Position numbers and translations under genes: made by a program
Source of the DNA: an uncultured Porphyromonadaceae bacterium
GTDB lineage: Bacteria; Bacteroidota; Bacteroidia; Bacteroidales; Muribaculaceae
Length of the DNA: 64,000 bases
NCBI GenBank assembly: GCA_902468245.1
Contig: CABQXY010000028.1
Span: forward strand, 412,802-476,801
Direction of reading: 5' to 3'
In this document: one piece after another, positions 9,553-29,341 of the stretch
Layout of the letters: each line of letters starts with the position of its first letter
How positions within the stretch are numbered: the stretch's first letter is position 1
The notes under the pieces: model-generated
Seen by the model: the letters and a program-made list of their open reading frames with translations, nothing else
The model's database searches: none
What the model was told of the DNA's origin: nothing

Positions 9553-11635
9553 GCATATCCTGAAGGCCTACCAACTGGTCGCGCAGTCGAGCCGCCTCGA
9601 TGAAGTCGGTACGGCGTGCCGCGTCTATCATGTCGCGTTTCACTATCTCTATCTGTTTCTCCAGCTCGGGCGGCGTCATATATTCCAGCACCGGTTCGGC
9701 GGCGAATACAGCCTGGTGTTCTTCTTCGATATAAGGACGCGGTTTGCGCGGTGCGGTCGGATTCTGAGGTTTCTGAGGACTCGGAATCCTTGACTTCCCT
9801 TTGGTCGGGTTCTGCGCCTTGGCCTCTGCAGCCTCGCCGTAGATTTCCACCAGCTCGTTGTGGCTTTTCTTGGCGATGGGGGTGGGAGTGATGCCGTGCG
9901 CCTCGTTGTACAGCATCTGCTTGGCGCGGCGCCGGTTGGTCTCCTCTATGGTCTGGCGCATGGAGTCGGTTATCTTGTCGGCATACATTATGACGCGGCC
10001 GTTCACGTTACGCGCGGCGCGTCCTGCGGTCTGCGTCAGGCTGCGGTGGTTGCGCAGAAATCCCTCCTTGTCGGCGTCCAGGATGGCCACGAGGCTGACC
10101 TGCGGCAGGTCGAGACCCTCGCGCAGCAGGTTTACACCTATCAGCACGTCGTACACGCCCTCGCGAAGATCCTCCAGGATCTTGATGCGCTCCAATGTGT
10201 CTACGTCGCTGTGGATATAGGCCGAGTTGATGCCCCATTTTATAAGGTGCTTGTTCAGTTCCTCGGCCATGCGTTTGGTGAGGGTGGTGACCAATACGCG
10301 CTCGTCGGCGTCTATGCGCTGGCGAATCTGCTCCATCAGGTCGTCTATCTGGTTCAGCGTCGGACGTATCTCGATTTCGGGGTCGAGAAGTCCCGTGGGA
10401 CGTATCACCTGTTCCACAAACACGCCCTCGGTCTGCTGCAGCTCATAGTCGCCAGGCGTGGCACTCACATAGATGGTCTGTGGAGTGAGGCGTTCGAACT
10501 CCTCGAACTTCAGCGGGCGGTTGTCGATGGCCGCGGGCAGACGGAACCCGTATTCCACCAGGTTCATCTTGCGCGACAGGTCACCGCCGTTCATGCCCCG
10601 TATCTGCGGCAGCGTCACGTGGCTCTCGTCGATGATGGTCAGGAAGTCCTTAGGGAAATAGTCCAGGAGGCAGAAGGGACGCATGCCCGGTTCGCGGCCA
10701 TCGAAGTATCGCGAATAGTTCTCGATGCCGCTGCAGTGTCCTAATTCCTTGATCATCTCCAGGTCGTACGTCACGCGCTCACGGAGCCGTTCTGCTTCCA
10801 GAATCTTCCCCTCGTGCATGAAGAAGTCAACCTGCTTGCCCAGGTCCACGGCTATCTGGTCCACGGCTTTAGCCGTGCGCTCCTTGCTTGTCACGAAGAT
10901 GTTGGCAGGATATATGTTGAATCCCTCAAGGTCGGTAAGCACCGCACCCGATACGGGGTCCACGGTCTGCACTTTCTCGATCTCGTCGCCCCAGAACACC
11001 ACGCGCAACCTGATCTCCTCGAACGACAGCATGATGTCCACCGTGTCGCCTCGCACACGGAACTGACCGCTCTGCAGGTCGGTCTCCGTGCGGCTGTACA
11101 GCGAGCTGACCAGGTCGCGCAGGAACTGGTTGCGACTCAAGCGCTGGCCCACCTTGACCGACACGACCGTCTGGCGGAAGTCCTCGGGATTGCCCATGCC
11201 GTAGATGCAGCTCACCGACGACACCACGATGACGTCACGGCGTCCCGACATCAGGGCCGCTGCCGTGGAGAGGCGCAACTTGTCGATCTGCTCGTTGATC
11301 ATCAGGTCCTTCTCGATGTATTTGTCGCTGCCGGGTATATAGGCTTCGGGCTGGTAATAGTCATAGTACGAGACGAAGTATTGCACGGAATTCTCCGGGA
11401 AGAAAGACTTCATCTCGGAGTATAGCTGCGCGGCCAGCGTCTTGTTGTGCGACAATATCAGCGTGGGACGCTTCACCTGCTGTATCACGTTGGCCATGGT
11501 GAAGGTCTTGCCGGAGCCGGTGACGCCAAGCAGTGTCTGGTGGGGGAGTCCGTTGCGGACGCCTTCGGCCAGCTCGGCTATGGCTTCGGGCTGGTCGCCC
11601 GTGGGCATGTATTCTGATGTCAGTTTGAATTCCAT
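9497..11635 (-). CDS. uvrB: excinuclease ABC subunit B (UvrB)
   Basis: 712 aa; [20 protein letters not shown]-terminus, Walker A GVTGSGKT, helicase motifs, C-terminal UVR domain ([10 protein letters not shown]). Confidence 0.9.
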
Positions 11636-11676
11636 TGTAAATCGGGGTTTGGGAGAGTTGGGATGAGGGGAGAGTC

Positions 11677-12813
11677 TCAGTCCATGCGGTCGCGGTAGTC
11701 GGTGTAGGTGAATTCGCGAAGCAGCACTGGTTCTCCATCCCGGGGTTGGAACCAGATGGAGGGATGCTTAATGCCGTTGAACATGTTGGTCTTTACCGTG
11801 GTGTAATGGTTCATGTCGCAGAGTGTCAGACGGTCGCCCGGCTTTAGCGGACGGTCGAAGCACCAGTCTCCGACGAAGTCACCGGACAGGCACGAGTTAC
11901 CGCCGAGCCGGTATCTGTACGGCGAGTCTGCGCCGTCGGCCACGGTACCGATGGCCTCCTCCACGCGCGGCTGATAGGGCATTTCCAGGCAATCGGGCAT
12001 GTGGCAGGCAAACGAGGCGTCGATGATGGCGGTCTTGATGCCGGCATCCTCCACCACGTCCAGCACTTCGGTAACGAGGTCGCCGGTCTGCCATGTGAAT
12101 GCGCTGCCGGGTTCAAGTATTATCTCGAGATTGGGATACCGCTCGTGCAGACGTTTCATAAGCTTAATCAGATGCTCGGTGTCATAGTCCTTGCGTGTTA
12201 TGAGGTGGCCGCCGCCCATGTTCAGCCATTTCAGCCCGGGCAGCAGGTGTCCGTATTGCTCGATGAACGCGTCCAGCACCTTCTCCAGATCGTGGCTGTC
12301 GCTCTCGCACAGGGCGTGGAAGTGCAGTCCTTCTATGCCCGCGGGAAGTCCGTTCGCGAGTTTGTCCGGATTCTCGCCGAAGCGTGAGCCGGGAACGCAG
12401 GGATTGTATATGTCGGTTTCGATGACGCTGCAGTGCGGGTTGACGCGAAGTCCTACGCTGACCTTTCGGTCGGCTGCCTCGATTTGGGGACGGAACTTCT
12501 CGTACTGGGCCAGCGAATTGAACGTGATGTGGCTGCACCCTTTCAGAAACTCCGGGAATGTCCGCTCGGTATACACCGGGCAATAGGCATGCACGTCGTG
12601 TCCGAGGTAGTCCAGCGACAGCTTCATCTCGTTGAGCGAGCTGGCCGTGGAGCTGTGGAAATATTCTTTTATCACCGGGAATGTCTTCCACAGCGCGTTG
12701 GCCTTGAACGCCATTATGATCTTGACGTCCGCGGCTTCGGCTACCCGTTTCAGTTTCTCCAGATTGGCCCGGAGCCTGTCTTCATATACTATGTAATATG
12801 GTGTATCAATCAT
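11677..12813 (-). CDS. nspC: carboxynorspermidine/carboxyspermidine decarboxylase
   Basis: 378 aa; N-terminus [17 protein letters not shown]...AFKAN typical of NspC (PLP fold type III). Confidence 0.85.
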
Positions 12814-15160
12814 CGATTATATTGAACTTGGCAAATTGCAACAACAGTCGTTTCACGCCCACGTTCTCGAATTCCACGACAATGCCTTCGAGTCCGGAAA
12901 CGCTTGTGAAGTCATTAATAGAACCTATTCCGAACTTCTTATGTTCGATTTTCATCCCCTTCTTAAGCTCCTGCATCGAGTGGGTGGGCATCTCGTCCAG
13001 GGATTTGGCATCCGTGTTCTTACGCGCCTTGAGCTTTGCGGCAGACACGAATCCGCCGAAATTCAGCGATTCGGAAGATTGCGACGATCCGTAGCTTCGG
13101 CTACGCGATGAAGTGCCGTAGCCACCGAAACTGCTGCGGTAGTTCATCACCGGATTGGTGAAGTCATCCTCTATTCCCGACGTCTCCATCTTGACGAACT
13201 TCGGATTGATGTCGCTCAGGAACCGGCTTGGCGACGTCATCACGGTCTGGCCGTTACGGAAACGCGACTTGGCGTAGCTGAGCATACACGTGTCCTTGGC
13301 GCGGGTCATGGCCACATACAGCAGACGGCGTTCCTCCTCAACCTCAGACATGGATTCAAGCGCCATTGCCGAGGGAAACAGTTCCTCCTCCACACCCACG
13401 ATGTAGACGTGCTTGAATTCCAGTCCCTTGGCGGCGTGGGCAGTCATCAGCGTAACTTTCGGTCCTGCCTGCTCGTCTTTCTGATCCTGATCCGTGGCCA
13501 GCATCACTTCGCTGAGGAACGAGGTCATAGACACATCGCCTTCGCCGCTTTCGATGCGGAATTCCACGAACTCCTTCATGCTGCGCAGCAACTCCGTCAG
13601 GTTTTCCTGGCGGCTGATGCTTTCGGGCGTGTTCTCGTGGGCCAGCATGGTCAGCATACCTGTGCGGTTGTACACTAACTGTCCCACCTCGTATGCGTTG
13701 TGCGTGGTGCTGTCGGTCATGAACTGTCGCATCAGCTCAACGAACCGGTCAAGTTTTCCACGCGTGCCGCTGTTGACCGGCAGGGGATAGAGGTCGGGGT
13801 TAGCCAATACCTGCCATAGGCTGACCTTGCCAGAAAGTGCCGTATCGCGCACTTTCTTCAACGTAGTTTCGCCGATGCCTCGGGCGGGATAGTTGATGAT
13901 GCGTCGCAACGACTCGTCATCGTCGGGATTGACGATGAGACGGAAATAAGCCAAGGCATCCTTCACTTCCTTGCGCTGGTAGAAAGCGGTGCTGCCGTAT
14001 ATGCGGTAAGGCATGGAACGTTTGCGAAGTGCCTCCTCCAGTACGCGGCTCTGGGCGTTGGTACGGTACAGCACGGCATAGTCCTCGTAGGTGTCGTGCT
14101 CCGTGAGCACGCTCTGCGCGATGCGGGCCGCCACGAGCGAGGCTTCCTCCAGGTCGCTGTATGTCTGCACTATGTCTACGGGCGCCCCCTCGGCGTTCTC
14201 GCTGTACACGTTCTTGGCCAACTGACGGGTGTTCTTCTCTATCAGCGAGCCGGAAGCGTTCACTATATTCTGTGTGGAACGGTAGTTGCGCTCCAGCTTG
14301 AATGTCTTCAGCCCGGGATAGAACCGCTCCAGGTCGATGATGTTGTTGATGTTGGCGCCACGGAACGAGTAGATGCTCTGCGCGTCGTCGCCCACTACGC
14401 ACAGCTTGTTGTCGGGAGCGGCCAACTGCGAGATGACCAGGTGCTGGGCATAGTTGGTGTCCTGATACTCGTCGACGAGTATGTAGCGGAACTGCTCGGC
14501 GTATCGCTGACGCACCTCGGGATGCTCCGACAACAGCTTGTTCATGAAGAAGATGATGTCGTCGAAGTCCATGGCGTTGGCCATTTGGCAGCGGTCTACG
14601 TACATCTGGAATATCTTGGCGGTCATGGGCCTGCGTGCCTTCATGTCGTGGGCGCCGTACTGACGCGCGTACTCGTCGGGAGTGAGCATGGCGTTCTTGG
14701 CATTGGAGATGCACGAGAAGATAGTGGCCGGCTTATAGTCCTTGTCCGACAGGCCCAGGTCCTTGATTATCATCTTCACCAGGTTGCGCGAGTCGGTGGT
14801 GTCGTAAATGCTGAAAGACGGCTTGAAGCCCAACAGCTCGGCATGATTGCGCAACAGTCGCAGGAAAATGGAATGGAAGGTGCCCATCGGTATGCGGTGG
14901 GCGGCCTGAGGTCCCACCAGTGCCGAGATTCGGTCCTTCATCTCGCGCGCCGCCTTGTTGGTGAAGGTCAGCGCCAGGATGCGGTGAGGCTGATAACCGC
15001 AGTTCAGAAGGTGAACTACCTTGTAGGTCAGCACGCGGGTCTTGCCCGATCCGGCGCCTGCTATCACCAGCGAAGGGCCGTCGAGGTATTCCACGGCGGC
15101 GCGCTGCTGGTCGTTCAGTCTGTCCAGATATCTGTAATCCGGAGTCGGTTGCTGGGTCAT
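12806..15160 (-). CDS. ATP-dependent DNA helicase, UvrD/Rep/PcrA (SF1) family
   Basis: 784 aa; Walker A AGAGSGKT, SF1 motifs (TFTNKAAREM, VDEYQDTN, LERNYRS), UvrD_C region. Confidence 0.85.
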   Translation of the reverse strand: MTQQPTPDYRYLDRLNDQQRAAVEYLDGPSLVIAGAGSGKTRVLTYKVVHLLNCGYQPHRILALTFTNKAAREMKDRISALVGPQAAHRIPMGTFHSIFLRLLRNHAELLGFKPSFSIYDTTDSRNLVKMIIKDLGLSDKDYKPATIFSCISNAKNAMLTPDEYARQYGAHDMKARRPMTAKIFQMYVDRCQMANAMDFDDIIFFMNKLLSEHPEVRQRYAEQFRYILVDEYQDTNYAQHLVISQLAAPDNKLCVVGDDAQSIYSFRGANINNIIDLERFYPGLKTFKLERNYRSTQNIVNASGSLIEKNTRQLAKNVYSENAEGAPVDIVQTYSDLEEASLVAARIAQSVLTEHDTYEDYAVLYRTNAQSRVLEEALRKRSMPYRIYGSTAFYQRKEVKDALAYFRLIVNPDDDESLRRIINYPARGIGETTLKKVRDTALSGKVSLWQVLANPDLYPLPVNSGTRGKLDRFVELMRQFMTDSTTHNAYEVGQLVYNRTGMLTMLAHENTPESISRQENLTELLRSMKEFVEFRIESGEGDVSMTSFLSEVMLATDQDQKDEQAGPKVTLMTAHAAKGLEFKHVYIVGVEEELFPSAMALESMSEVEEERRLLYVAMTRAKDTCMLSYAKSRFRNGQTVMTSPSRFLSDINPKFVKMETSGIEDDFTNPVMNYRSSFGGYGTSSRSRSYGSSQSSESLNFGGFVSAAKLKARKNTDAKSLDEMPTHSMQELKKGMKIEHKKFGIGSINDFTSVSGLEGIVVEFENVGVKRLLLQFAKFNIIDD

Positions 15161-19546: not shown

Positions 19547-20161
19547 ATGACACCTGAAGAATTTCTGCAAAAATTTGACTGGATGGGACGGTTCAAGTAT
19601 TCTGTCCAGACCATAAAGGATAATAAAACGATATGGGTATTGAAGGCTTCCGACGGGTCTTATCCCATTTCCGAGGGTAGACCTAAAAAGTTTTGTGTCT
19701 GGGCTGAGGAAATCCATGCTCGGTATGAGTGTACAGACGGCTGGGAAGATACAATCCCGACTCCAATGTCGTATGAAGACTTCATGTCGGAGATATATCC
19801 GGTGTTGAAAAAGCGTAAGGTGAACATAATACTTGTGTCGCCTATGAGAAATAGGCGAGGAAAGGAGGTGTCGGTATCGGAATTCATTGATAAAATCGGA
19901 ATGGCAACAGGTGCTGATCCTAATAATAATATTCCTATTGAGCCGGAACCCGAACTAATACCCATCGACAGAAAGGTCCTGAAAGAGTTGTTTGACTATC
20001 TTGACGAGGCGTTAAGTATAGAAGAATGTAATAATGATTTGCGTCTGACCATATCCTATCTCAGGAATCATGGAGTCCGGAATATAGACAATGCCGTGGC
20101 GTGGCTTCAATCCAAAGGAGGATACTGCGACTGCGAGGTTTTGGCCAACGTGGAAGAGTAA
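19547..20161 (+). CDS. hypothetical protein, CRISPR-array adjacent (two-part; C-terminal W..GGYCDCE motif)
   Basis: 204 aa, low-GC ORF with reasonable coding bias; no family confidently recognised. Confidence 0.5.
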   Translation: MTPEEFLQKFDWMGRFKYSVQTIKDNKTIWVLKASDGSYPISEGRPKKFCVWAEEIHARYECTDGWEDTIPTPMSYEDFMSEIYPVLKKRKVNIILVSPMRNRRGKEVSVSEFIDKIGMATGADPNNNIPIEPEPELIPIDRKVLKELFDYLDEALSIEECNNDLRLTISYLRNHGVRNIDNAVAWLQSKGGYCDCEVLANVEE

Positions 20162-20288
20162 TGCTTGAGAAGCGGCTATTACTTTGACAACAGCTAATTA
20201 ATACACCGCATTCCACAAGTAGCTGATAGATGTAAACAAGATCAATTTTTATATTACGATTCATGGCAAAGACGGAATCAAGGAAATA

Positions 20289-21166
20289 GTTCTATTATTT
20301 ATGCACTACGAATCACATCGACGATACGGCCATCTATCCGTTGGTCCCCGTTGTGATTTGCTTTAGATTTATTATTTTTGCACTACGAATCACATCATTG
20401 GTTATGAAATTGAGAATCTCGTGCTTGTTGTGATTTGCTTTAGATTTATTATTTTTGCACTACGAATCACATCAGGAGCTGTCGTTGGTGTATGATGCCG
20501 TAAGTTGTGATTTGCTTTAGATTTATTATTTTTGCACTACGAATCACATCGTACTTTTTGTGGAAACCGTCCTCGCCATCGTTGTGATTTGCTTTAGATT
20601 TATTATTTTTGCACTACGAATCACATCTATTGTAGCATTTTGCTATGGATCTGATTAGTTGTGATTTGCTTTAGATTTATTATTTTTGCACTACGAATCA
20701 CATCTTAATAGCCACCGTTAAAGAGCTGGCCCCGGTTGTGATTTGCTTTAGATTTATTATTTTTGCACTACGAATCACATCTGCAACAAACGAAAGTACT
20801 GGTGAATCAGCGTTGTGATTTGCTTTAGATTTATTATTTTTGCACTACGAATCACATCTAGACTTTGCATGACCAGCGTCACCTCCTCGTTGTGATTTGC
20901 TTTAGATTTATTATTTTTGCACTACGAATCACATCTTGTTAATTCGTCTCCCAGCTCCAGCCCCTGTTGTGATTTGCTTTAGATTTATTATTTTTGCACT
21001 ACGAATCACATCGTGCGCCTGTAACGTTGACGACGACATAAGGTTGTGATTTGCTTTAGATTTATTATTTTTGCACTACGAATCACATCATTAGCAATAT
21101 TAGACTGACCAAGAGGAGTGTTGTGATTTGCTTTAGATTTATTATTTTTGCACTACGAATCACATC
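20289..21166 (+). CRISPR. CRISPR array: 5'-truncated repeat (20289-20319) + 11 identical 47-nt repeats GTTGTGATTTGCTTTAGATTTATTATTTTTGCACTACGAATCACATC, with eleven 30-nt spacers; period 77 nt
   Basis: Repeats start at 20350, 20427, 20504, 20581, 20658, 20735, 20812, 20889, 20966, 21043 and 21120. Eleven unique 30-nt spacers lie between repeat units, e.g. S1 GACGATACGGCCATCTATCCGTTGGTCCCC and S11 ATTAGCAATATTAGACTGACCAAGAGGAGT. The repeat length and GTTGTGATTTGC start are typical of Bacteroidetes type II-C arrays. Confidence 0.95.
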
Positions 21167-21196
21167 ACAATGCGTGTATTGTATTGATATTCACAG

Positions 21197-21243
21197 TGGT
21201 ATAGTGATTCGTAGAATAAAAAAACGCTCCTTTAAATTGGAGC
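21197..21243 (+). repeat. probable degenerate terminal CRISPR repeat (preceded by a 12th spacer-like 30 nt, 21167-21196)
   Basis: GTATAGTGATTCGTAGAATAAAAAAACG aligns loosely with GTTGTGATTTGCTTTAGATTTATTATTTTTG at the expected 77-nt phase. Confidence 0.35.
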
Positions 21244-21256
21244 GTTTTTATTTTCT
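21214..21256. terminator. bidirectional intrinsic terminator between CRISPR array and cas2
   Basis: A-run, AACGCTCC-TTTAAATT-GGAGCGTT hairpin, T-run (TTTTTATTTT); works for the plus (array) and minus (cas operon) transcripts. Confidence 0.6.
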
Positions 21257-21324
21257 GTAGGAGAATAGCATTCTCCACATTATTAGAGATATCTTCTATC
21301 TTTTAGAAATCATACTCTGCTATA

Positions 21325-21675
21325 TCAGAATAGTTCAAGTTGGATGGCATCCGGAAGTGGCGTGCTTTTCTTCGTTCCTTCAAATAGCAAGATCTCTCTA
21401 AACTGGCGTTCGGTTATTGTAATGATACATACCTTACCCTCATTGGGTATCTGTTTTTTTATTCTGTTTACATGAACATCTGTATTTTCTCTGGAGGCGC
21501 AGTTTCTGACATATATGGAATACTGAAACATCGTGAAGCCATCGGAGATCAAATATTTACGAAAATCCGAGGCATCCTTTCGTTGCATCTTTGTTTCCGT
21601 AGGGAGGTCAAACATGATTAATATCCACATGAGTTGATAAGAACTAATTCTGTCGTAGGAAACATAATGCGCCAT
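21325..21675 (-). CDS. cas2: CRISPR-associated endoribonuclease Cas2
   Basis: 116 aa; MWILIMFDLPTETK...YSIYVR typical Cas2 N-terminus; immediately downstream of cas1. Confidence 0.85.
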   Translation of the reverse strand: MAHYVSYDRISSYQLMWILIMFDLPTETKMQRKDASDFRKYLISDGFTMFQYSIYVRNCASRENTDVHVNRIKKQIPNEGKVCIITITERQFREILLFEGTKKSTPLPDAIQLELF

Positions 21676-21693
21676 ATTGCGATGGATTAACTA

Positions 21694-22611
21694 TTAAATC
21701 GGGATTCTCGGATAGATCACCTTCCTGCTTTCTTTTGAGAAACATTTTGCAAGAGAAGATGTTGTTATGGATGCCGCCACGAGCAGAGGACGTCGGATTT
21801 TTCCGAAACTCACATCCAAATTAGGAATTGTCAGTAACGTTTTCTTGGCTTCTTTGTCCAAGCCATTATTCAGATTCTGTTTCAACACCATATCCGCGAC
21901 AAGTAAATCGACATACGGCCTATATGGTTCCATAATATCATCAGCGAGGCAGTTGGCATTATATTTATTGGAATGATGGATTCCGATTAAAGGCGTCAGA
22001 CCACTCCCCACGATACTACGTGCAATGATTGCTCGTAATATGGCGTATCCATAATTTAGAAAAATGTTGATGTCATCTTCTCCGTCCTTATCTCTCCTGA
22101 ATCTGCCTGATTCCATGAACATATTCCGCCAATAATAAGCTGCAGCCCTTCCTTCAAGATTTTCCGGATCTCCACTTCTTACACTTGACGCCCATTTAAT
22201 CATATTCCCGATATTCAGTCCAGTTACCTGGCGTAGAACAGCCCCTTGATTCAGAATTTTTGCCGATACTGTCTGCTGCCATAATTGCTTCTTCAATGGT
22301 AGTGATGCTTGAATCTGAGCGATAGACTTCTCCGATTGAAGTGTATGGGCTTCAAGAGGAAGAATCATATTTGCCGGCATGTGTTTAGAGTCGCAGAAAA
22401 TGACTCCTATATTATTCTGTATCAGTTCCGAAACAAGAGATGATGTGAGAGTGACCTGACCACTCTCTATCATCATAATTCCGATATCTTCAATCGGACG
22501 AGTTATGACTTCTTCCTCACCTGTAAGCTCATTCTCCCTCTTTATTACCAGTTGCTTTAATTTTAAAGATAGATAAGCTTTCTTAGAGAATACCAATGTC
22601 TTCTTTATCAT
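21694..22611 (-). CDS. cas1: CRISPR-associated endonuclease Cas1 (type II)
   Basis: 305 aa; Cas1 integrase fold motifs; 2-nt gap after cas9 stop. Confidence 0.9.
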   Translation of the reverse strand: MIKKTLVFSKKAYLSLKLKQLVIKRENELTGEEEVITRPIEDIGIMMIESGQVTLTSSLVSELIQNNIGVIFCDSKHMPANMILPLEAHTLQSEKSIAQIQASLPLKKQLWQQTVSAKILNQGAVLRQVTGLNIGNMIKWASSVRSGDPENLEGRAAAYYWRNMFMESGRFRRDKDGEDDINIFLNYGYAILRAIIARSIVGSGLTPLIGIHHSNKYNANCLADDIMEPYRPYVDLLVADMVLKQNLNNGLDKEAKKTLLTIPNLDVSFGKIRRPLLVAASITTSSLAKCFSKESRKVIYPRIPI

Positions 22612-22612
22612 A

Positions 22613-25600
22613 TTACGACATATTGTCGAAGTCTATCTCTCCGAGTTGTGAAATGCTGATCTTATGAGGATTAAGGGCTAAGAAAGAGCTTATGGATTGG
22701 GTATTATAAAACATTTTCATCTCCTTATCTCCTTCATTGATTTTGGCTGTAGTATCTGTATGGAACTTGAAACTATAATTATTTGGTGACAATTTCCACA
22801 CTCGATATAGGTGCCTGTTGATAGCAGAATGATTCCGAGATGCGATGGCGTCGTTCCATTCATCTTCACTCAGTCCAAGCACTATCATCTCATTTCTCTG
22901 TAGGCTCATGACAAACTGAGAGTCATGTGGCGGCAATTTGGTTATAATCTCCTGAATATCGGAATTGTCTTCCATATTCGCAATCATATCCCATACCGAA
23001 GCCGGATCGGTTATGATTACAGGAATCCCATAGCGTTTCCTCTTGATGCCATCCCAGAACGATACAACAGACTCAGTAATCTTTCCATCCGGATTCTGAT
23101 AGAATGCAAGATGGTGATTGTTTCTGGTTTGAGAGAAACCGATTTCTTTTCCGGTTAGAGTTTTCTTGACGCATGCCAACGTATCTGCTTTAAGTCCTGT
23201 AAAGCATCTGACATTACGTATCGCACACTTCCCATTCTCATCCGAGCAAATCGAATTTTCAATCAGACTTTTAACGAAATCCTTCTCTCCAACTTCGTCA
23301 AAACGCTCCTGGAACTTACGGCGGATGGATAAATCAACAATACTGTTGATATCCGATTGCTTTTTTATGCTTTCAATCGGATATTTGATAACAAACTCCT
23401 CTCCGTAGCAATCAGCCTGTTCTACTGTATGTCCATTGACAACCAAAGGAGACTTCTTAAGTTGTTTCAAGATCTTACTAATATTTCCGTCGCTTTCTTT
23501 CAGTAGATTCAAAACTGCAGTTCTGATATTGTTATCCACTATGGCATCAGGATTGTTGAATATATGTTTCAGATTCTTCTTACCGATTGGAACCTTAATT
23601 TTTCCGTAAACGGAATCTTTGGTGAGGGCAGCACGAGGAACAAGAATGCCTTTTTGGACACATTTGCGCTTCCCGTTACGCTTTACATATCTCTTGCCGG
23701 GAGTGGCAAGTTTTTTACCGGGTTTGAAGGAAACCGAGATGTTATTGACAGCATCCTGCACTTCCTTGACAGATATATGAGGTTGTGCCGACGCCCACTT
23801 ATCCAGATTCACCTTATCTGAAGCTGACTTATCCGAATCTGCATTCAGGGTATTAAGTCGCTGAATGTATCCCTGTCGCGTAAGTGCTATTACAAGAGCG
23901 TCTATGGCATGATGGCGATGATCCATTCGTTTTGTCCAGTCCTTGATTCGTTCTGTCGTATGTGTCTGGGCATGGGTAGTGTATTCAACTTCTTCAACAA
24001 GATCTGCATTGCGGTATTTGGGCAGATTTAGGTCATGCAGCACGTTGTCATACCCCCACACATGACGGAAGAAACTTGTTACAGCCCCGGATGAAGCATA
24101 GACATTTCTGAACATTTGGGAGAGAATCTCACGTGCTTTCTTGGCGATATACTGGCTTTCGCGCAGATCCCTCTCTATAAAATCCGAAGGAATTTCCGAG
24201 GAAGACATCTTAAGATTGTTGCGCTTAGTCTTTGAGATCTTCCCATTCTTATAAAGTTCCTCAACACGGTCGAGATATGCATTGAATTCGGAATCACTCT
24301 TGGTTTTCATGAAATCATAACCGGTGAGCGCACCCTTAGCCTTGTTACACTCACGACATGAGCATACCTTGTTGGAGAAACTGTCATCGAATAAGCGGGA
24401 GCGAGGTATGATGTGTTCTATCTCGTATCCATGACCTTCGATAAATTGAGATGGAGTAACCACAGCACCGCAATATATACATTTATTCCCGGTCTCCTGA
24501 AGCATCCGCATCTTCTGTATACGGCGACGGGTAGGAGAGATGTTGAGTTCCGCTATCATGTCGGCGAATTTCTGATTCTCTTTCTCCTGCTTGTTGATTC
24601 TTGTCGTAGTTTCCGCTCTATCTTCTTTATTCTGTTTCAGTTCCCGGGCAAGTTCTATGCGTACCTCATCGATTTCGCCAAAACGGTCTGTCACAGCATT
24701 AGTCAGATTAATGGTCTGATTGATGATTTTCTCTACAATAGGCTGGCGGAGTTCTCCTTTGTTAAGCCTGTCAAGACGAGGCTTAAGTGTGCGGGCATTG
24801 TTCTCCTCTGCAGTCATGGAGCCGGAATGATTCACCCCGCACAGCTCGCAAGCTTTACTATAGCCATTACCCTCCATGAGATGAGGGAGGATACGTCGAA
24901 TAAACTTTGCGGATTTATTGGCATACCCATCTTTTACGAAGTCTATGGCATACAGCTTCTCAAGAGTCTCAGCATCTGAGATATTGAATTTTCGAGAAAG
25001 ACAATCAAACAGTTCTTTTTTGTCTTTGATGGAGTATAGTGTATGCCATAGCTGATAAAGCGGCTCGTCAAGATACGACAGATCGATTACAGGTTCTAAA
25101 GCACCTGTATTTTTGTCGACCTTATCGGTTATCTTGACCTTGAACTTCAGTAGTTCCTCTTTCCCGGGGTAATCAGCCAATGCTTTGGCAATGGCGCAAT
25201 ACGTCTTATTCCCTTGTATGCCTTTAGCAAGAGCTTGATCTGATTTAAATCCGTCAGCCTGCTTCAGACCTAATAGGCCGAGGAGTTTGCTTTCCGATAG
25301 TCTGTCGTTGGTATTTAGATAATCGAATATCCGCAGTCTTTCCTCAGGATTAATCGGGAATTCATACTGTAACTTTCTCACGTCTGTTGGCGTTGTATCC
25401 ATCCCGTCGAACAATGACGGTTGCACAATTTTCCTTCCTTTTAGACGTGGATTTACCAGACGAATGTTATTAATCGATTCGTACAATTTGCAAACCTGTG
25501 CTAATGGCGATGACTTAGGTGTTACCTTCGGTCCGCTATCCACTTCTTTACCTGCGGAATTTTTAAAGGTTCGCTTTTCAAAATCGCAGTAGGATACAAG

Positions 25601-26341
25601 GTGCTTGCACGATTTAAGCGGACGTTGAAAGAATATGAGATTCTTCAACTTTGTGATATTCTCATCAGTAAGGATTTCGGGATAGAATTCCTTCTGAGCA
25701 TTTATGATGGCATCAAATTCCTGAGCATACGCCTCTCGAGGGAATACTTCTTCTTTTATCCTATATGTGTATTGTTTCTTGCCTCGACTACTTTCTGCCT
25801 CGGATTCTTTCAACTTGTTGTAGAAAAATTGACCGATAGTCTGATTTAAGGCTTTGATTTCGGAGTATCGATTGTTTACGCGTGTTACGTATTCTGTCTG
25901 TTTGGAATCACCCATGTCGGACTTTGCATGGCGATAACCTCTGCGCTTATTTAGATGCAACAAAACACGTGCGATGTCTGATTTAGAAAGTTGTATGCCG
26001 GGAGTAGACGCATCGCTCCGGAGTTTCCAGGTCTCAAGTGGATTCAGAGGCGGAAAGACTTCTGATTTATCCACCATTCCGAGTTCTATAAGGAATGATC
26101 TGAGAGATTCCCGACGTTGCTGGTATCTATCAAGCATTTTACGCGCGGTTCTTCTTGCGGTACGTTGCGAACAGGGCGTCTCACCCTTTCCGGCTGAAAA
26201 ATCAGAAGCCTCATTGTTTTCGTATTGAATAATGCGGCTGCCTAATCCCAAAAGTTGAATGACATTGGAATCTTTGTCTGATATATCAATTACACTCCAA
26301 CCTATTGATGCTGTTCCGAGGTCAAGTCCGAGTATTTTCAT
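22613..26341 (-). CDS. cas9: type II-C CRISPR-associated endonuclease Cas9
   Basis: 1242 aa; RuvC-I MKILGLDLGTASIGWSVI, arginine-rich bridge helix SQRTARRTARKMLDRYQQRR, HNH motif EIEHIIPRS...CSCRECNKAKG, RuvC-III HHAIDALVIA; no csn2/cas4 in locus. Confidence 0.95.
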   Translation of the reverse strand: MKILGLDLGTASIGWSVIDISDKDSNVIQLLGLGSRIIQYENNEASDFSAGKGETPCSQRTARRTARKMLDRYQQRRESLRSFLIELGMVDKSEVFPPLNPLETWKLRSDASTPGIQLSKSDIARVLLHLNKRRGYRHAKSDMGDSKQTEYVTRVNNRYSEIKALNQTIGQFFYNKLKESEAESSRGKKQYTYRIKEEVFPREAYAQEFDAIINAQKEFYPEILTDENITKLKNLIFFQRPLKSCKHLVSYCDFEKRTFKNSAGKEVDSGPKVTPKSSPLAQVCKLYESINNIRLVNPRLKGRKIVQPSLFDGMDTTPTDVRKLQYEFPINPEERLRIFDYLNTNDRLSESKLLGLLGLKQADGFKSDQALAKGIQGNKTYCAIAKALADYPGKEELLKFKVKITDKVDKNTGALEPVIDLSYLDEPLYQLWHTLYSIKDKKELFDCLSRKFNISDAETLEKLYAIDFVKDGYANKSAKFIRRILPHLMEGNGYSKACELCGVNHSGSMTAEENNARTLKPRLDRLNKGELRQPIVEKIINQTINLTNAVTDRFGEIDEVRIELARELKQNKEDRAETTTRINKQEKENQKFADMIAELNISPTRRRIQKMRMLQETGNKCIYCGAVVTPSQFIEGHGYEIEHIIPRSRLFDDSFSNKVCSCRECNKAKGALTGYDFMKTKSDSEFNAYLDRVEELYKNGKISKTKRNNLKMSSSEIPSDFIERDLRESQYIAKKAREILSQMFRNVYASSGAVTSFFRHVWGYDNVLHDLNLPKYRNADLVEEVEYTTHAQTHTTERIKDWTKRMDHRHHAIDALVIALTRQGYIQRLNTLNADSDKSASDKVNLDKWASAQPHISVKEVQDAVNNISVSFKPGKKLATPGKRYVKRNGKRKCVQKGILVPRAALTKDSVYGKIKVPIGKKNLKHIFNNPDAIVDNNIRTAVLNLLKESDGNISKILKQLKKSPLVVNGHTVEQADCYGEEFVIKYPIESIKKQSDINSIVDLSIRRKFQERFDEVGEKDFVKSLIENSICSDENGKCAIRNVRCFTGLKADTLACVKKTLTGKEIGFSQTRNNHHLAFYQNPDGKITESVVSFWDGIKRKRYGIPVIITDPASVWDMIANMEDNSDIQEIITKLPPHDSQFVMSLQRNEMIVLGLSEDEWNDAIASRNHSAINRHLYRVWKLSPNNYSFKFHTDTTAKINEGDKEMKMFYNTQSISSFLALNPHKISISQLGEIDFDNMS

Positions 26342-26453
26342 GATGACTATATAATTTATAATTATAAATTGCAGTTTTGATTACAAAACTAATAAAATAA
26401 GTTCATGAAAACAATTTTTTGCACTATTATTTGAATAATTCGTTTTTTTGATA

Positions 26454-26461
26454 TAAATTTG
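26454..26461 (+). promoter_or_regulatory. Bacteroidetes sigma-A -7 element (TAAATTTG = TAnnTTTG) with TTTG -33 element 20 bp upstream (26430-26433), driving the tracrRNA
   Basis: match to the TAnnTTTG/-33 TTTG consensus, positioned 6 nt upstream of the anti-repeat. Confidence 0.45.
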
Positions 26462-26465
26462 TGAC

Positions 26466-26558
26466 GCAAAAATAAACTAAAGCAAATCACAATAAGGATT
26501 ATTCCGTTGTGAAAACATCTGAGGAGGGAAATCAAATGATTTCTCTCCTGTCTTTTAA
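26466..26558 (+). ncRNA. tracrRNA: predicted tracrRNA (divergent from cas9)
   Basis: 26468-26492 AAAAATAAACTAAAGCAAATCACAA is the reverse complement of repeat nt 1-24 (22/24 with one bulge). It is followed by the nexus-like TAAGGATTATTCCG. Then comes the hairpin GGAGGGAAATCA-AA-TGATTTCTCTCC (26523-26548) and TGTCTTTTAAT. Confidence 0.65.
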
Positions 26559-27000
26559 TGTTGGATGCTTATATAATTATGACGTAATGCCCAAATATGG
26601 CATCGGTTCAACGCAGTAAAATAAAGAGGGTGGGCCCGACTGATAAGAAGTGCTGGTAATGGGAGACAGATGCCGTCGCTAAAGCTTCGGGCTGGAACAA
26701 AAACAGATGGCACAGCAAAAAAAGAGCGGGTGATGGTGGAAATAATAGGTGTCGCGGATATCGGGTGGATGTGCAAAATATAAGCGGATAAATGGTAGGA
26801 TTGGAATAGAGTTGTCCAAAATATTTTGTAAGTGGTTGAAAATAAGATATGTGGAAATTTATAAAGGTTGAAAAGTTTTCCAAAACGAAAATCTTTTGAA
26901 ATTTTTAGGCGTTTATAGTTGTCGTAAAGAATTAATTTTGTAACTTTGTATCGGAATTGGGATGTGCTCAGTTTAGATACCATTTCGATATCATTCCGAT

Positions 27001-27108
27001 GCCGTTAATGACAGTCAAAACACGCATGCCGTTAATGACAGTCAAAACACGCATGCCGTTAATGACAGTCAAAACACGCATACCGTTAATGACAGTCAAA
27101 ACACACAG
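27001..27108. repeat. 4 x 27-bp perfect/near-perfect tandem direct repeat (GCCGTTAATGACAGTCAAAACACGCAT) ending 28 bp upstream of nrdD ATG
   Basis: copies at 27001, 27028, 27055 (identical) and 27082 (3 substitutions). Confidence 0.9.
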
Positions 27109-27136
27109 TTAACAAAATATAAACAGACCCAGGAGC

Positions 27137-29341
27137 ATGATACAGATAGTCGAGAAGCGCGACGGGCGCGTAGTGGGATATAACGAGGAAAAGATCAAGG
27201 CGGCCATACGCAAGGCGATGCTCACCACCGAGCGTGGGGAGGACGAGGCCCTGATCCAGAAAATAGCCGACCGCATCGGCATCGCAGGCAAGCAGCGCAT
27301 GACCGTGGAGGAGATCCAGGACTGCGTAGAGGTCGAACTGATGAAGTCGGCCCGAAAGGACGTGGCCAAAAAGTATATCCAGTACCGCGACCAGCGTTCA
27401 ATAGCACGCAAGGCCCGCACCCGCGATATGTTCCTGGAGATTATCGAGGCCAAGAACAACGACATCACGCGCGAGAACGCCAACATGAACACCGATTCTC
27501 CCGCCGGCATGATGATGAAGTTCGCTTCCGAAAGCACCAAGCCGTTCGTCGACGACTACCTGCTGTCGCCCGACGTGCGCAACGCGGTGCGCGACAATCT
27601 GATTCATATCCACGACAAGGATTATTATCCCACCAAGTCGCTGACCTGCGTGCAGCATCCTCTGGACCGCATACTGCAGCGCGGTTTCGTGGTGGGTCAT
27701 GGCGAGTCCCGTCCCGCCAAACGTATAGAGACCGCTTCCGTATTGGCCTGCATCAGCCTGGAGACCGCACAGAACGAGATGCATGGCGGTCAGGCCATCC
27801 CGGCATTCGATTTCTACCTGGCTCCATTCGTACGCAACTCATATATAGAGGAAATAAAGAATCTGGAGAAACTGACGGGCCGCGACCTGTCGCATCTGCA
27901 GAATTCCGAGATAAAGGATTACCTGAAGGTGGAACTTGACGGCCTGGAGGGTGACGAACGCCTGCGCCAGCACGCCATCAACAAGACCGTGGACCGCGTG
28001 CACCAGTCGATGGAGGCGTTCATACACAACATGAATACCATCCATTCGCGCGGCGGCAATCAGGTGGTGTTCTCCAGCATCAACTACGGCACCGATACCT
28101 CGGCCGAGGGCCGTTGCGTGATCCGCGAGTTGCTGAAGTCCACATACGAGGGCGTCGGCCATGGTTCCACCGCAATCTTCCCTATACAGATATGGAAGAA
28201 AAAGAGGGGAGTGAGCTACCTGCCCGAAGATCCCAACTACGACCTGTATAAATTGGCATGTAAGGTGTCGGCTCGCCGCTTCTTCCCCAACTTCCTGAAC
28301 TTAGACGCTACCTTCAACCGTGACGAGGCCTGGGATGCCAACGACCCGCGCCGCTTCGAGCACGAGGTGGCCACTATGGGATGCCGCACACGTGTGTTCG
28401 AGAACCGTTTCGGCGAAAAGACCTCCATAGGCCGTGGCAACCTGTCGTTCACTACCATCAACATTGTGCGCATCGCCATCGAGCAGATGGGTATCGAGGA
28501 CAAGGAGGAGCGTATCGCCAAATTCTTCGAGCGTCTTGACGAGGTGATGGATCTGACGGCTCGTCAGCTTGACGAGCGCTATCAGTTCCAGAAGACCGCA
28601 TTCGCCAAGCAGTTCCCGTTGCTGATGCGCGTGTTGTGGAATCACACCGAGGGCCTGAAGCCCAACGACAGCATCGAGAGCGTCATCAACCAGGGTACGC
28701 TCGGCATCGGATTCATCGGACTTGCCGAATGTCTGATAGCCTTGACAGGCAAGCATCACGGCGAGAGCGACGAGGCTCAGCAACTCGGCCTCCGCATCGT
28801 AAGCCACATGCGCGAGAAAGTGAACACCTATTCTGAAAACTACCGCCACAACTATTCCGTACTGGCCACGCCCGCCGAGGGACTCTCCGGCCGATTCACC
28901 AAGAAGGACCGCAAGACGTTCGGCGTGATTCCAGGCGTGACGGACAAGGATTACTACACCAACTCCAACCACGTGCCCGTGTACTATCACTGCTCGCCGC
29001 GCCACAAGGCCAAGATCGAGGGTCCATATCACGAGCTGACTTTAGGAGGTCACATCTTCTACGTTGAGATCGACGGTGATGCCACACACAACGAGGAGTC
29101 GATAATGCAGATCGTGGACATGATGGACCAATACAATATCGGTTACGGATCGGTGAACCACAACCGCAACCACTGTCCCAACTGCGGCTACGAGAACGCG
29201 GAGAAGGACGAGACATGCTGTCCGAAGTGCGGCGCGCGTTTCGAGACCATCCAGCGTATCACCGGCTACCTGGTGGGTACCACCGACCGCTGGAACAGCG
29301 GCAAGCTCGCCGAACTGAAAGACCGCGTGGTTCACAAATAA
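27137..29341 (+). CDS. nrdD: anaerobic ribonucleoside-triphosphate reductase (class III RNR)
   Basis: 734 aa; N-terminal ATP-cone, C-terminal Zn-ribbon CPNCG...CCPKCG and glycyl-radical region. Confidence 0.9.
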   Translation: MIQIVEKRDGRVVGYNEEKIKAAIRKAMLTTERGEDEALIQKIADRIGIAGKQRMTVEEIQDCVEVELMKSARKDVAKKYIQYRDQRSIARKARTRDMFLEIIEAKNNDITRENANMNTDSPAGMMMKFASESTKPFVDDYLLSPDVRNAVRDNLIHIHDKDYYPTKSLTCVQHPLDRILQRGFVVGHGESRPAKRIETASVLACISLETAQNEMHGGQAIPAFDFYLAPFVRNSYIEEIKNLEKLTGRDLSHLQNSEIKDYLKVELDGLEGDERLRQHAINKTVDRVHQSMEAFIHNMNTIHSRGGNQVVFSSINYGTDTSAEGRCVIRELLKSTYEGVGHGSTAIFPIQIWKKKRGVSYLPEDPNYDLYKLACKVSARRFFPNFLNLDATFNRDEAWDANDPRRFEHEVATMGCRTRVFENRFGEKTSIGRGNLSFTTINIVRIAIEQMGIEDKEERIAKFFERLDEVMDLTARQLDERYQFQKTAFAKQFPLLMRVLWNHTEGLKPNDSIESVINQGTLGIGFIGLAECLIALTGKHHGESDEAQQLGLRIVSHMREKVNTYSENYRHNYSVLATPAEGLSGRFTKKDRKTFGVIPGVTDKDYYTNSNHVPVYYHCSPRHKAKIEGPYHELTLGGHIFYVEIDGDATHNEESIMQIVDMMDQYNIGYGSVNHNRNHCPNCGYENAEKDETCCPKCGARFETIQRITGYLVGTTDRWNSGKLAELKDRVVHK

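Follow-up and report, generated by a model that had tools for sequence, protein, structure and literature searches.

A predicted tracrRNA gene divergent from cas9 in a Bacteroidales type II-C CRISPR-Cas9 locus

The guide RNA of SpCas9, which belongs to type II-A, comprises a nexus, a linker, a GAAA-looped stem-loop 2 (ACUU-GAAA-AAGU) and a terminal hairpin with a U-tract. Promoters of the Bacteroidetes reportedly consist of two parts, a TTTG element at -33 and a TAnnTTTG box at -7, a scheme that is said to go back to work by Bayley and colleagues in 2000. The 1442-aa CbCas9, associated with PcrIIC1, is said to have been described by Zhang and colleagues in 2024 (Nature 630:484). A subcluster of Bacteroidetes Cas9 proteins, with repeats of up to 48 nt, has been set apart by Chylinski et al. 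(2013), who also placed the tracrRNAs of II-A and II-C systems mostly upstream of cas9. The tracrRNAs and sgRNAs of the clade X Cas9 orthologs have been listed by Gasiunas et al. (2020; PMC7606464, Supplementary Data 2), and the same source gives PAMs from biochemical screens for Cga (Chryseobacterium gallinarum) and Cca1 (Capnocytophaga canis). The type II-C systems of Riemerella anatipestifer, Flavobacterium columnare and Flavobacterium psychrophilum have repeats of 47 nt (PMC5006608, PMC10309648), as does the locus described here. For Riemerella, a 16-nt anti-repeat, TGAAAGCAATTCACAA, has been predicted upstream of cas9 (PMC5006608), and for Flavobacterium, promoters that are encoded in the repeats and directed towards the variable end have been reported (PMC10309648); these papers left the tracrRNA promoter and the full RNA undefined, and tracrRNA transcription was not resolved in the latter. 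The II-C system of Neisseria meningitidis (Zhang et al. 2013) has, as cited in PMC5006608 and PMC10309648, the same gene order as the locus described here; its array is transcribed against the cas operon (PMC3737331), as is predicted here, and a promoter element lies within every repeat, according to the account given in the two citing papers (PMC5006608, PMC10309648).

The window, that is, the whole 64-kb stretch of DNA that was analyzed, carries a CRISPR-Cas9 locus and its neighborhood with the following features, given in window coordinates:

20273..20319, plus strand: degenerate twelfth (terminal) repeat, the old end of the array
20350..21166, plus strand: CRISPR array, in which 11 identical repeats of 47 nt alternate with 10 spacers of 30 nt
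21220..21249, both strands: bidirectional terminator hairpin between cas2 and the array, from a terminator scan
21325..21675, minus strand: cas2 (TIGR01573, E = 2.3e-20)
21694..22611, minus strand: cas1, type II (TIGR03639, E = 1.3e-87)
22613..26341, minus strand: cas9, 1242 aa (TIGR01865, E = 1.4e-142)
26384..26391, minus strand: candidate -7 box of cas9, TAGTTTTG, recognized by sequence alone, in a back-to-back arrangement with the predicted tracrRNA promoter
27137..29341: nrdD (anaerobic ribonucleotide reductase), the neighbor beyond the predicted tracrRNA

The order of the locus is tracrRNA, cas9, cas1, cas2 and array, with a gap of 795 nt between cas9 and nrdD that contains the predicted tracrRNA. 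According to the ORF map, only three genes lie between the tracrRNA and the array, all of them identified (cas9, cas1 and cas2), and neither the ORF map nor the family matches revealed csn2, cas4 or any fourth cas gene at the locus, which is therefore assigned to type II-C. Cas9 has intact catalytic motifs for RuvC and HNH, namely DLG (D7), EHIIP (H643), CN (N666) and HHAID (H810/D814). The nearest solved Cas9 by sequence is CbCas9 (PDB 8iyq, E = 2.4e-51 over the HNH/RuvC-III region), from whose system the locus differs in that no additional cas-associated gene lies from cas9 to the array. The 47-nt repeat has the sequence GTTGTGATTTGCTTTAGATTTATTATTTTTGCACTACGAATCACATC.

Related loci were fetched by Cas9 protein, not by RNA, and number 83 in total. 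Three were taken from genomes, namely L001, a Bacteroidales MAG of the rumen with a Cas9 that shares 92% identity with that of the window, and L002 and L003, with 41-42% identity; the remaining 80 come from metagenomes, with Cas9 identities of 25-78%. No spacers are common to the window and L001, and, with repeats that are identical and spacers not shared with this close relative, the II-C system is apparently active. At the position of the candidate cas9 -7 box, L001 has TAGCTTTG.

The gap upstream of cas9 very probably holds the tracrRNA gene of this Bacteroidales type II-C locus. The RNA would be transcribed divergently from cas9, 125 nt upstream of it, and folds with a z-score of -4.0. Its gene comprises the following parts:

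26430..26433, plus strand: TTTG, the predicted -33 promoter element of the tracrRNA gene, with a 20-bp spacer between it and the -7 box downstream
26454..26461, plus strand: -7 box TAAATTTG of the predicted tracrRNA promoter, a match to the consensus TAnnTTTG
26465..26556, plus strand: predicted tracrRNA of ~92 nt, with the 5' end placed within a few nucleotides and the 3' end at the U-tract
26466..26492, plus strand: anti-repeat, complementary to repeat nt 1-24, or to nt 1-32 in the extended register
26493..26506, plus strand: nexus (stem-loop 1) UAAGGAUUAUUCCG, with GGA at 26496-26498 paired with UCC at 26503-26505
26507..26519, plus strand: conserved linker UUGUGAAAACAUC, with a possible mini-hairpin UGU-GAAA-ACA (26508-26510 with 26515-26517)
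26522..26549, plus strand: terminal hairpin of 12 bp with one G-U pair and the loop AAAU, from the terminator scan and the fold
26553..26556, plus strand: U-tract UUUU, 3 nt (GUC) past the stem

Both sequence and energetics show pairing between the 5'-terminal 27 nt of the RNA and the opening 24-32 nt of each plus-strand repeat. The reverse complement of 26468-26492 is TTGTGATTTGCTTTAGTTTATTTTT, and both the coordinates and the pairing of this segment, with 22 matched positions and a 1-nt bulge, are as the original prediction had given them: the anti-repeat pairs with repeat nt 2-17 (16 bp), A18 of the repeat is bulged (1 nt), and pairing resumes with nt 19-24 (6 bp), making 22 Watson-Crick pairs, with G1 of the repeat opposite U26493 as a G-U. 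An alternative, more stable register has 17 bp, an internal loop and another 10 bp (GCAAAAAUA with UAUUUUUGC) and extends to repeat nt 32; since it uses G26466 and C26467, the anti-repeat probably begins at 26466. In the predicted duplex, a lower stem of 17 bp is thus separated from an upper stem by a bulge or internal loop. The duplex energy is -31.9 kcal/mol, the best among 25,188 windows; the background of 25,188 other 30-nt windows, taken from both strands, averages -8.65 +/- 2.6 kcal/mol, and shuffled anti-repeats give -7.6 +/- 2.5.

It had been claimed that no better anti-repeat exists elsewhere, and this holds throughout the window: in a local alignment of the repeat with the whole 64 kb minus the array, the anti-repeat scores 42 and the runner-up 24, and the best unrelated site of the window reaches a duplex energy of -23 kcal/mol. 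These values weigh heavily against the idea that the functional tracrRNA lies elsewhere, either at 21204-21214 by the array or between the cas genes, in which case the crRNAs would be made from the minus strand. The 11 nt at 21204-21214, GTGATTCGTAG, do complement repeat nt 34-44 and have a terminator next to them, and in one relative, L012, the RNA lies beyond the array and not upstream of cas9. However, this match, called weak from the outset, pairs with the 3' part of the repeat, the wrong end and one unused by type II tracrRNAs, and is degenerate in L001; moreover, a second copy is found by neither of the covariance models described below, and the promoter boxes of the repeats point along the plus strand. 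A tracrRNA elsewhere is thus extremely improbable, and the RNA upstream of cas9 is retained as the predicted tracrRNA.

Comparison with the related loci supports the same assignment. In the loci that contain an array, the anti-repeat was sought as the best match to the locus's own repeat outside the array. Among 44 distinct loci (43 relatives and the window), it lies on the strand opposite to cas9, from a few tens to ~270 nt upstream. In 25 of these 44 loci no repeat pairs better with the anti-repeat than the cognate one (median rank 0), and cognate duplexes are ~10 kcal/mol better than those with non-cognate repeats, so that the predicted anti-repeat changes together with its cognate repeat across the related loci. 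On the 3' side of the variable anti-repeat, nearly all loci have UAAGG-loop-CCGUUGUGAAAACAU, followed by a GC-rich hairpin of unrelated sequence and a T-run.

These RNAs were described by covariance models. An alignment of 4 seeds alone with MAFFT misaligned the terminal hairpins, and a 25-sequence alignment with covariance models was used instead. The first model, R1, comprises 25 RNAs, the window included, and has a single match in the window (26469-26555, 84.8 bits) and one match each in 72 of the 83 loci. In 71 of these 72 the match lies 32-263 nt upstream of cas9 and is divergent from it, the arrangement originally proposed for the window; the exception is L012, with its RNA beyond the array. 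Loci negative for R1 mostly have little or no sequence 5' of cas9. Since the window was within R1, a second model, R2, was made with 23 relatives; neither the window nor L001, the relative with the 92% identical Cas9, was included. R2 matches 26469-26555 on the plus strand over its full length (81.5 bits, E = 6.2e-15), and elsewhere in the 64-kb window it yields weak matches to CRISPR repeats only. Together with a 31-nt core shared with the clade X sgRNAs, this match upholds the identity of the RNA as a tracrRNA. Recognition by tracrRNA covariance models, which had been suggested as a check, was thus obtained with the family models R1 and R2 but not with the tracrRNA family of Rfam: searches of Rfam (4227 families), over 20000-27300 at E <= 10 and over the whole window at gathering thresholds, returned nothing at the site. 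This means that the RNA is not represented in Rfam, the tracrRNA family included, and has no bearing on function. Phe_leader and other weak Rfam matches at 21132-21260 reflect the long hairpin and the terminator beside the array and were rejected as family members.

The conservation of the non-repeat part of the RNA is relevant to another reading, in which the anti-repeat is an orphan repeat, inverted and degenerate, that was left behind when the array was rearranged; it would yield no functional RNA, and the hairpin would terminate a neighboring gene. An anti-repeat is repeat-like by definition, a further fragment that resembles the repeat, TTTTTGCACTA (nt 27-37, in plus sense), is found at 26416-26426, and Chylinski et al. 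(2013) propose that tracrRNAs originate from degenerate repeats. Against a mere relic, ~60 nt of non-repeat scaffold (nexus, linker and hairpin) are kept across Cas9s just 30-49% identical, the hairpin covaries, the promoter is conserved at a fixed spacing, and the scaffold is active as an sgRNA in relatives, as biochemistry has demonstrated. Nor is there anything for the hairpin to terminate: the minus-strand ORF at 26555-26983 (142 aa), which overlaps the 3' end of the RNA, is without a family match and is broken in L001 by indels of 1, 56 and 1 nt, and was therefore rejected as a gene. Such a relic is very improbable, and the conserved unit is better read as a tracrRNA gene. In agreement with this, the window and L001 share 98.1% identity over the stretch that runs from the -7 box through the RNA, as against 86.7% and 77%, with indels, in the flanks, and both differences within the RNA fall in the loop of the terminal hairpin. 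A GC-rich conserved block at 26590-26725 has fold z-scores of +0.1 and +1.3 and gives no sign of a structured RNA.

Among the modules of the predicted tracrRNA, the terminal hairpin is the one in which covariation is evident. Compensatory changes are seen at 10 of 10 modelled pairs across the family, and 95.7% of cells are paired, as compared with 45-61% for slid partners, counts that are biased in favor of the model, the alignment having been fitted to it and the sequences being related. The 12-bp hairpin with one G-U pair reported in the original prediction is present, with the arms AGGAGGGAAAUC/GAUUUCUCUCCU at 26522-26533 and 26538-26549 and a 4-nt loop; the register originally assigned to it has to be abandoned, as it leaves an impossible 2-nt loop. 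The U-tract announced after the hairpin is found as well, but it has merely four U residues and GUC stands between it and the stem. A tract this short, 3 nt away from the stem, is a point against the assignment of the RNA as a tracrRNA.

The nexus-like element UAAGGAUUAUUCCG follows the anti-repeat directly, as had been noted. Its stem is nearly invariant and is 100% paired in 65 distinct family members, its loop varies in length, and its third pair is kept in 2 sequences through a swap of A-U to U-A. The module after the nexus, GUUGUGAAAACAU, is a linker or a mini-hairpin; the linker is nearly invariant, and a compensatory change in the mini-hairpin occurs in L002 only (1 sequence). Since nexus and linker are almost invariant, their structure rests on conservation and on the analogy with SpCas9, not on covariation. 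The likeness to the SpCas9 guide RNA includes the AAGG...CCGUU nexus, a small hairpin with a GAAA loop past the linker, a bulged duplex, and a terminal hairpin with a U-tract, and the linker mini-hairpin may be a counterpart of stem-loop 2. The two differ in that SpCas9 belongs to type II-A and has a lower stem of 6 bp, as opposed to 17 bp here; also unlike SpCas9-type systems, the locus has a Bacteroidetes-type promoter, an array convergent with cas9 and no Rfam match.

The sequence after the nexus also admits a second role for the tracrRNA, either as an in-cis repeat mimic that masks the 3' end of the anti-repeat or through a long form that guides regulation of the cas9 promoter. GUUGUG after the nexus equals the first six bases of the repeat, and in the minimum-free-energy fold of the free RNA UCACAAU pairs with GUUGUGA around the nexus, both segments being invariant in the family; in the mimic version, the invariant GUUGUG may sequester UCACAAU until crRNA or Cas9 displaces it. 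The in-cis helix is without covariation, however, and has two pairs broken in L002, co-folding with the repeat favors the intermolecular duplex over it, and CCGUU and the GAAA-hairpin linker have another possible explanation, as equivalents of the linker and stem-loop 2 in SpCas9. As to the regulatory version, the tracrRNA and cas9 promoters stand back to back, the cas9 promoter being 70 bp away, and long-form tracrRNAs have been reported in II-C systems (bioRxiv 10.64898/2026.06.01.729453); on the other side, neither an upstream promoter nor a guide-like segment was identified. A second role is, on balance, unlikely. If true, it would be a regulatory layer for this tracrRNA family, one that is undescribed in Bacteroidetes II-C systems.

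The promoter of the predicted tracrRNA gene is conserved together with the RNA. Both the -7 box at 26454-26461 and the TTTG 20 bp upstream of it, which had been put forward as the two promoter elements, are present, and both recur in the relatives. An exact TAnnTTTG stands upstream of the anti-repeat in 31 of the 44 distinct loci, as against 1.7 expected from shuffled segments, and in the related loci 22-32 nt separate its G from the 3' end of the anti-repeat that follows. Of the 31 loci with an exact -7 box, 29 have a TTG 17-23 nt upstream of it (shuffling predicts 5.3); a spacer of exactly 20 nt, found in 17 of the 31, is the mode and is also the spacer of the window. From the position of the -33/-7 consensus, the start of transcription is predicted within a few bases of 26465-26468. 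In the searchable literature, no explicit description of a conserved -33/-7 promoter for these tracrRNA genes was found.

The anti-repeat also defines the polarity of the array. As the plus-strand anti-repeat complements the plus-strand repeat, the crRNAs are predicted to be read from the plus strand, convergent with the cas operon, in line with the original prediction. Each repeat has TATTTTTG, a match to the consensus TAnnTTTG, at nt 24-31 of its plus strand. Across the related loci an exact TAnnTTTG is present in repeats on the crRNA strand in 23 of 44 and on the other strand in 0 of 44, and the restriction of this box to the plus strand of the repeat supports the predicted plus-strand crRNAs. 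The degenerate terminal repeat at 20273-20319 has retained its 3' 33 nt with 3 mismatches, and the 5' 14 nt that pair with the tracrRNA are gone; a terminal repeat that keeps the promoter-bearing 3' part is what would be expected of the first unit of a plus-strand, repeat-driven array, in which this end may need the promoter half only. The predicted arrangement agrees with accounts of II-C arrays in Neisseria and Flavobacterium (PMC5006608, PMC10309648). The Neisseria element differs, according to the citing papers (PMC5006608, PMC10309648), in being an extended -10 box with the start in the spacer, whereas the box here is a TAnnTTTG -7 box that lies 16 nt before the repeat end, so that the start would fall inside the repeat; the Neisseria repeat is 36 nt long, as compared with 47 nt here. 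No match was obtained for 32 spacers (window and L001) against a phage collection in distant mode, nor for three 22-nt spacer cores against IMG/VR, and all spacers against the window and the fetched loci gave 14-nt chance matches only. As no protospacers were found in these searches, no PAM was derived.

The scaffold of the predicted tracrRNA is shared with RNAs already on record. A search of open-literature main texts for the literal scaffold sequence returned nothing relevant, and the one match is in a supplementary table, that of the clade X orthologs (PMC7606464). The 31-nt core CACAAUAAGGAUUAUUCCGUUGUGAAAACAU is identical in Cga and the window, as are 28 nt (AAUAAGGAUUAUUCCGUUGUGAAAACAU) in Cca1 and the window, and in both clade X and the window the anti-repeat, nexus, linker, single GC-rich hairpin and U-tract follow in the same order and the 47-nt repeats start with GUUGU. 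In clade X, homologous RNAs built on this scaffold function as sgRNAs for the Cas9 orthologs (PMC7606464). The differences concern the Cas9 proteins, of 1403-1430 aa in clade X and 1242 aa here, the hosts, Flavobacteriia in clade X and Bacteroidales here, and the sequences of the anti-repeat and the terminal hairpin, which are not the same; in addition, the duplex here has a bulge or internal loop past the first 17 bp. The biochemical activity is known from the clade X orthologs.

In the proposed mechanism, a Bacteroidetes-type promoter (-33 TTTG, 20 bp, -7 TAAATTTG) would start transcription of the tracrRNA at ~26465-26468, and transcription would end near 26556, at the 12-bp hairpin and the U-tract. 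The crRNAs would be plus-strand transcripts that run convergent to the cas operon and probably begin at the TAnnTTTG box embedded in the repeats. Cas9 would then bind the crRNA:tracrRNA duplex by way of the nexus, the linker and the 3' hairpin.

The predicted tracrRNA is an ordinary part in its usual place, a new member of a family that is already known, and it leaves the understanding of type II systems unchanged. Annotation gains the strand of the array and a complete parts list of the II-C locus, together with a sequence from which an sgRNA could be designed for a compact, 1242-aa Bacteroidales Cas9. At the level of the family, the addition is modest: the predicted tracrRNA genes of this Cas9 clade keep a -33/-7 Bacteroidetes promoter at a fixed distance from the anti-repeat, and a -7 box is retained on the crRNA strand of the repeats in the clade.

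Two short stretches of the CRISPR-Cas locus in the window match parts of the repeat, and both could be followed into L001, the closely related locus of a rumen Bacteroidales MAG. One of them, together with a palindrome, occupies the interval between cas9 and the tracrRNA gene:

26374-26391, palindrome GTTTTGATTACAAAAC, overlapping the candidate cas9 -7 box
26391-26384, minus strand, candidate cas9 -7 box TAGTTTTG
26416-26426, plus sense, TTTTTGCACTA, an exact copy of repeat nucleotides 27-37

The TTTTTGCACTA stretch precedes the anti-repeat by 40 nt and is flanked by the predicted divergent promoters of cas9 and the tracrRNA. It is kept in L001 with one mismatch and is possibly a remnant of the repeat that gave rise to the tracrRNA gene. 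The palindrome, kept only in part in L001, could serve as an operator or form a 5' hairpin in the cas9 mRNA.

The other stretch lies between the last repeat and cas2 (21167-21324):

21204-21214, GTGATTCGTAG, the reverse complement of repeat nucleotides 34-44

It is followed by TAGAATAAAAAAA and then by a bidirectional terminator (21220-21249), and is degenerate in L001. An inverted copy of the repeat 3' end, 8-10 nt long, is also found in the leader regions of many related loci (L003, L018, L037, L047, L053, L055, L059, L067, L071 and L076), located approximately 38-48 or 60-72 nt beyond the last repeat, with ...TAGAAAATAAAAAA and a terminator after it; the position of these copies is consistent and their scores are borderline.

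On the other side of the tracrRNA gene, the region preceding nrdD (27137) contains a tandem repeat:

26941-26948, TAACTTTG box, preceding the tandem repeat
26999-27104, four tandem copies of a 27-nt unit with the core CCGTTAATGACAGTCAAAACAC, just upstream of nrdD

Since the tandem repeat is located downstream of the TAACTTTG box, it is placed in the predicted 5' UTR. Compared with the four copies in the window, L001 has one, with 2 mismatches, and because of this single copy the set of 27-nt units in the window is a recent tandem expansion.

Among the related loci, two architectural exceptions were identified:

L012, 7337-7417, plus strand, tracrRNA located past the array and not upstream of cas9
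L019, 9785-11042, array directly after cas9, inverted relative to the usual layout

Within the tracrRNA family, a subgroup is distinguished by the terminal hairpin GCCYCGUCCUUxxxACGGGGC with UCCUU in the loop, found in the tracrRNA 3' parts of L036, L039, L040, L042, L047, L048, L054, L057, L063 and L067 and lacking from the window tracrRNA. In this subgroup, the loop could form a pseudoknot with AGG/AAGG just 5' of the stem.

A scan of IMG/VR viral contigs with the 26-nt tracrRNA scaffold matched 17 contigs; cas9 adjoins the RNA in 12 and is absent beside it in two:

L092, 262-287, minus strand, scaffold RNA after a Dam-type methylase gene, with a baseplate-like gene in the region and no cas9 found within 9 kb
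L096, 1027-1052, minus strand, scaffold RNA with a hairpin without a T-run, a tyrosine integrase gene approximately 250 nt away and no adjoining cas9

These two RNAs may represent tracrRNA copies that are orphan or carried by phages (for comparison, see bioRxiv 10.64898/2026.06.01.729453).

The spacer content differs completely between the window (10 spacers, 20397-21119) and L001 (22 spacers, 11176-12915), with none in common. This lack of shared spacers, despite identical repeats and 92% identity of the Cas9 proteins, indicates recent, independent spacer turnover in the two arrays.
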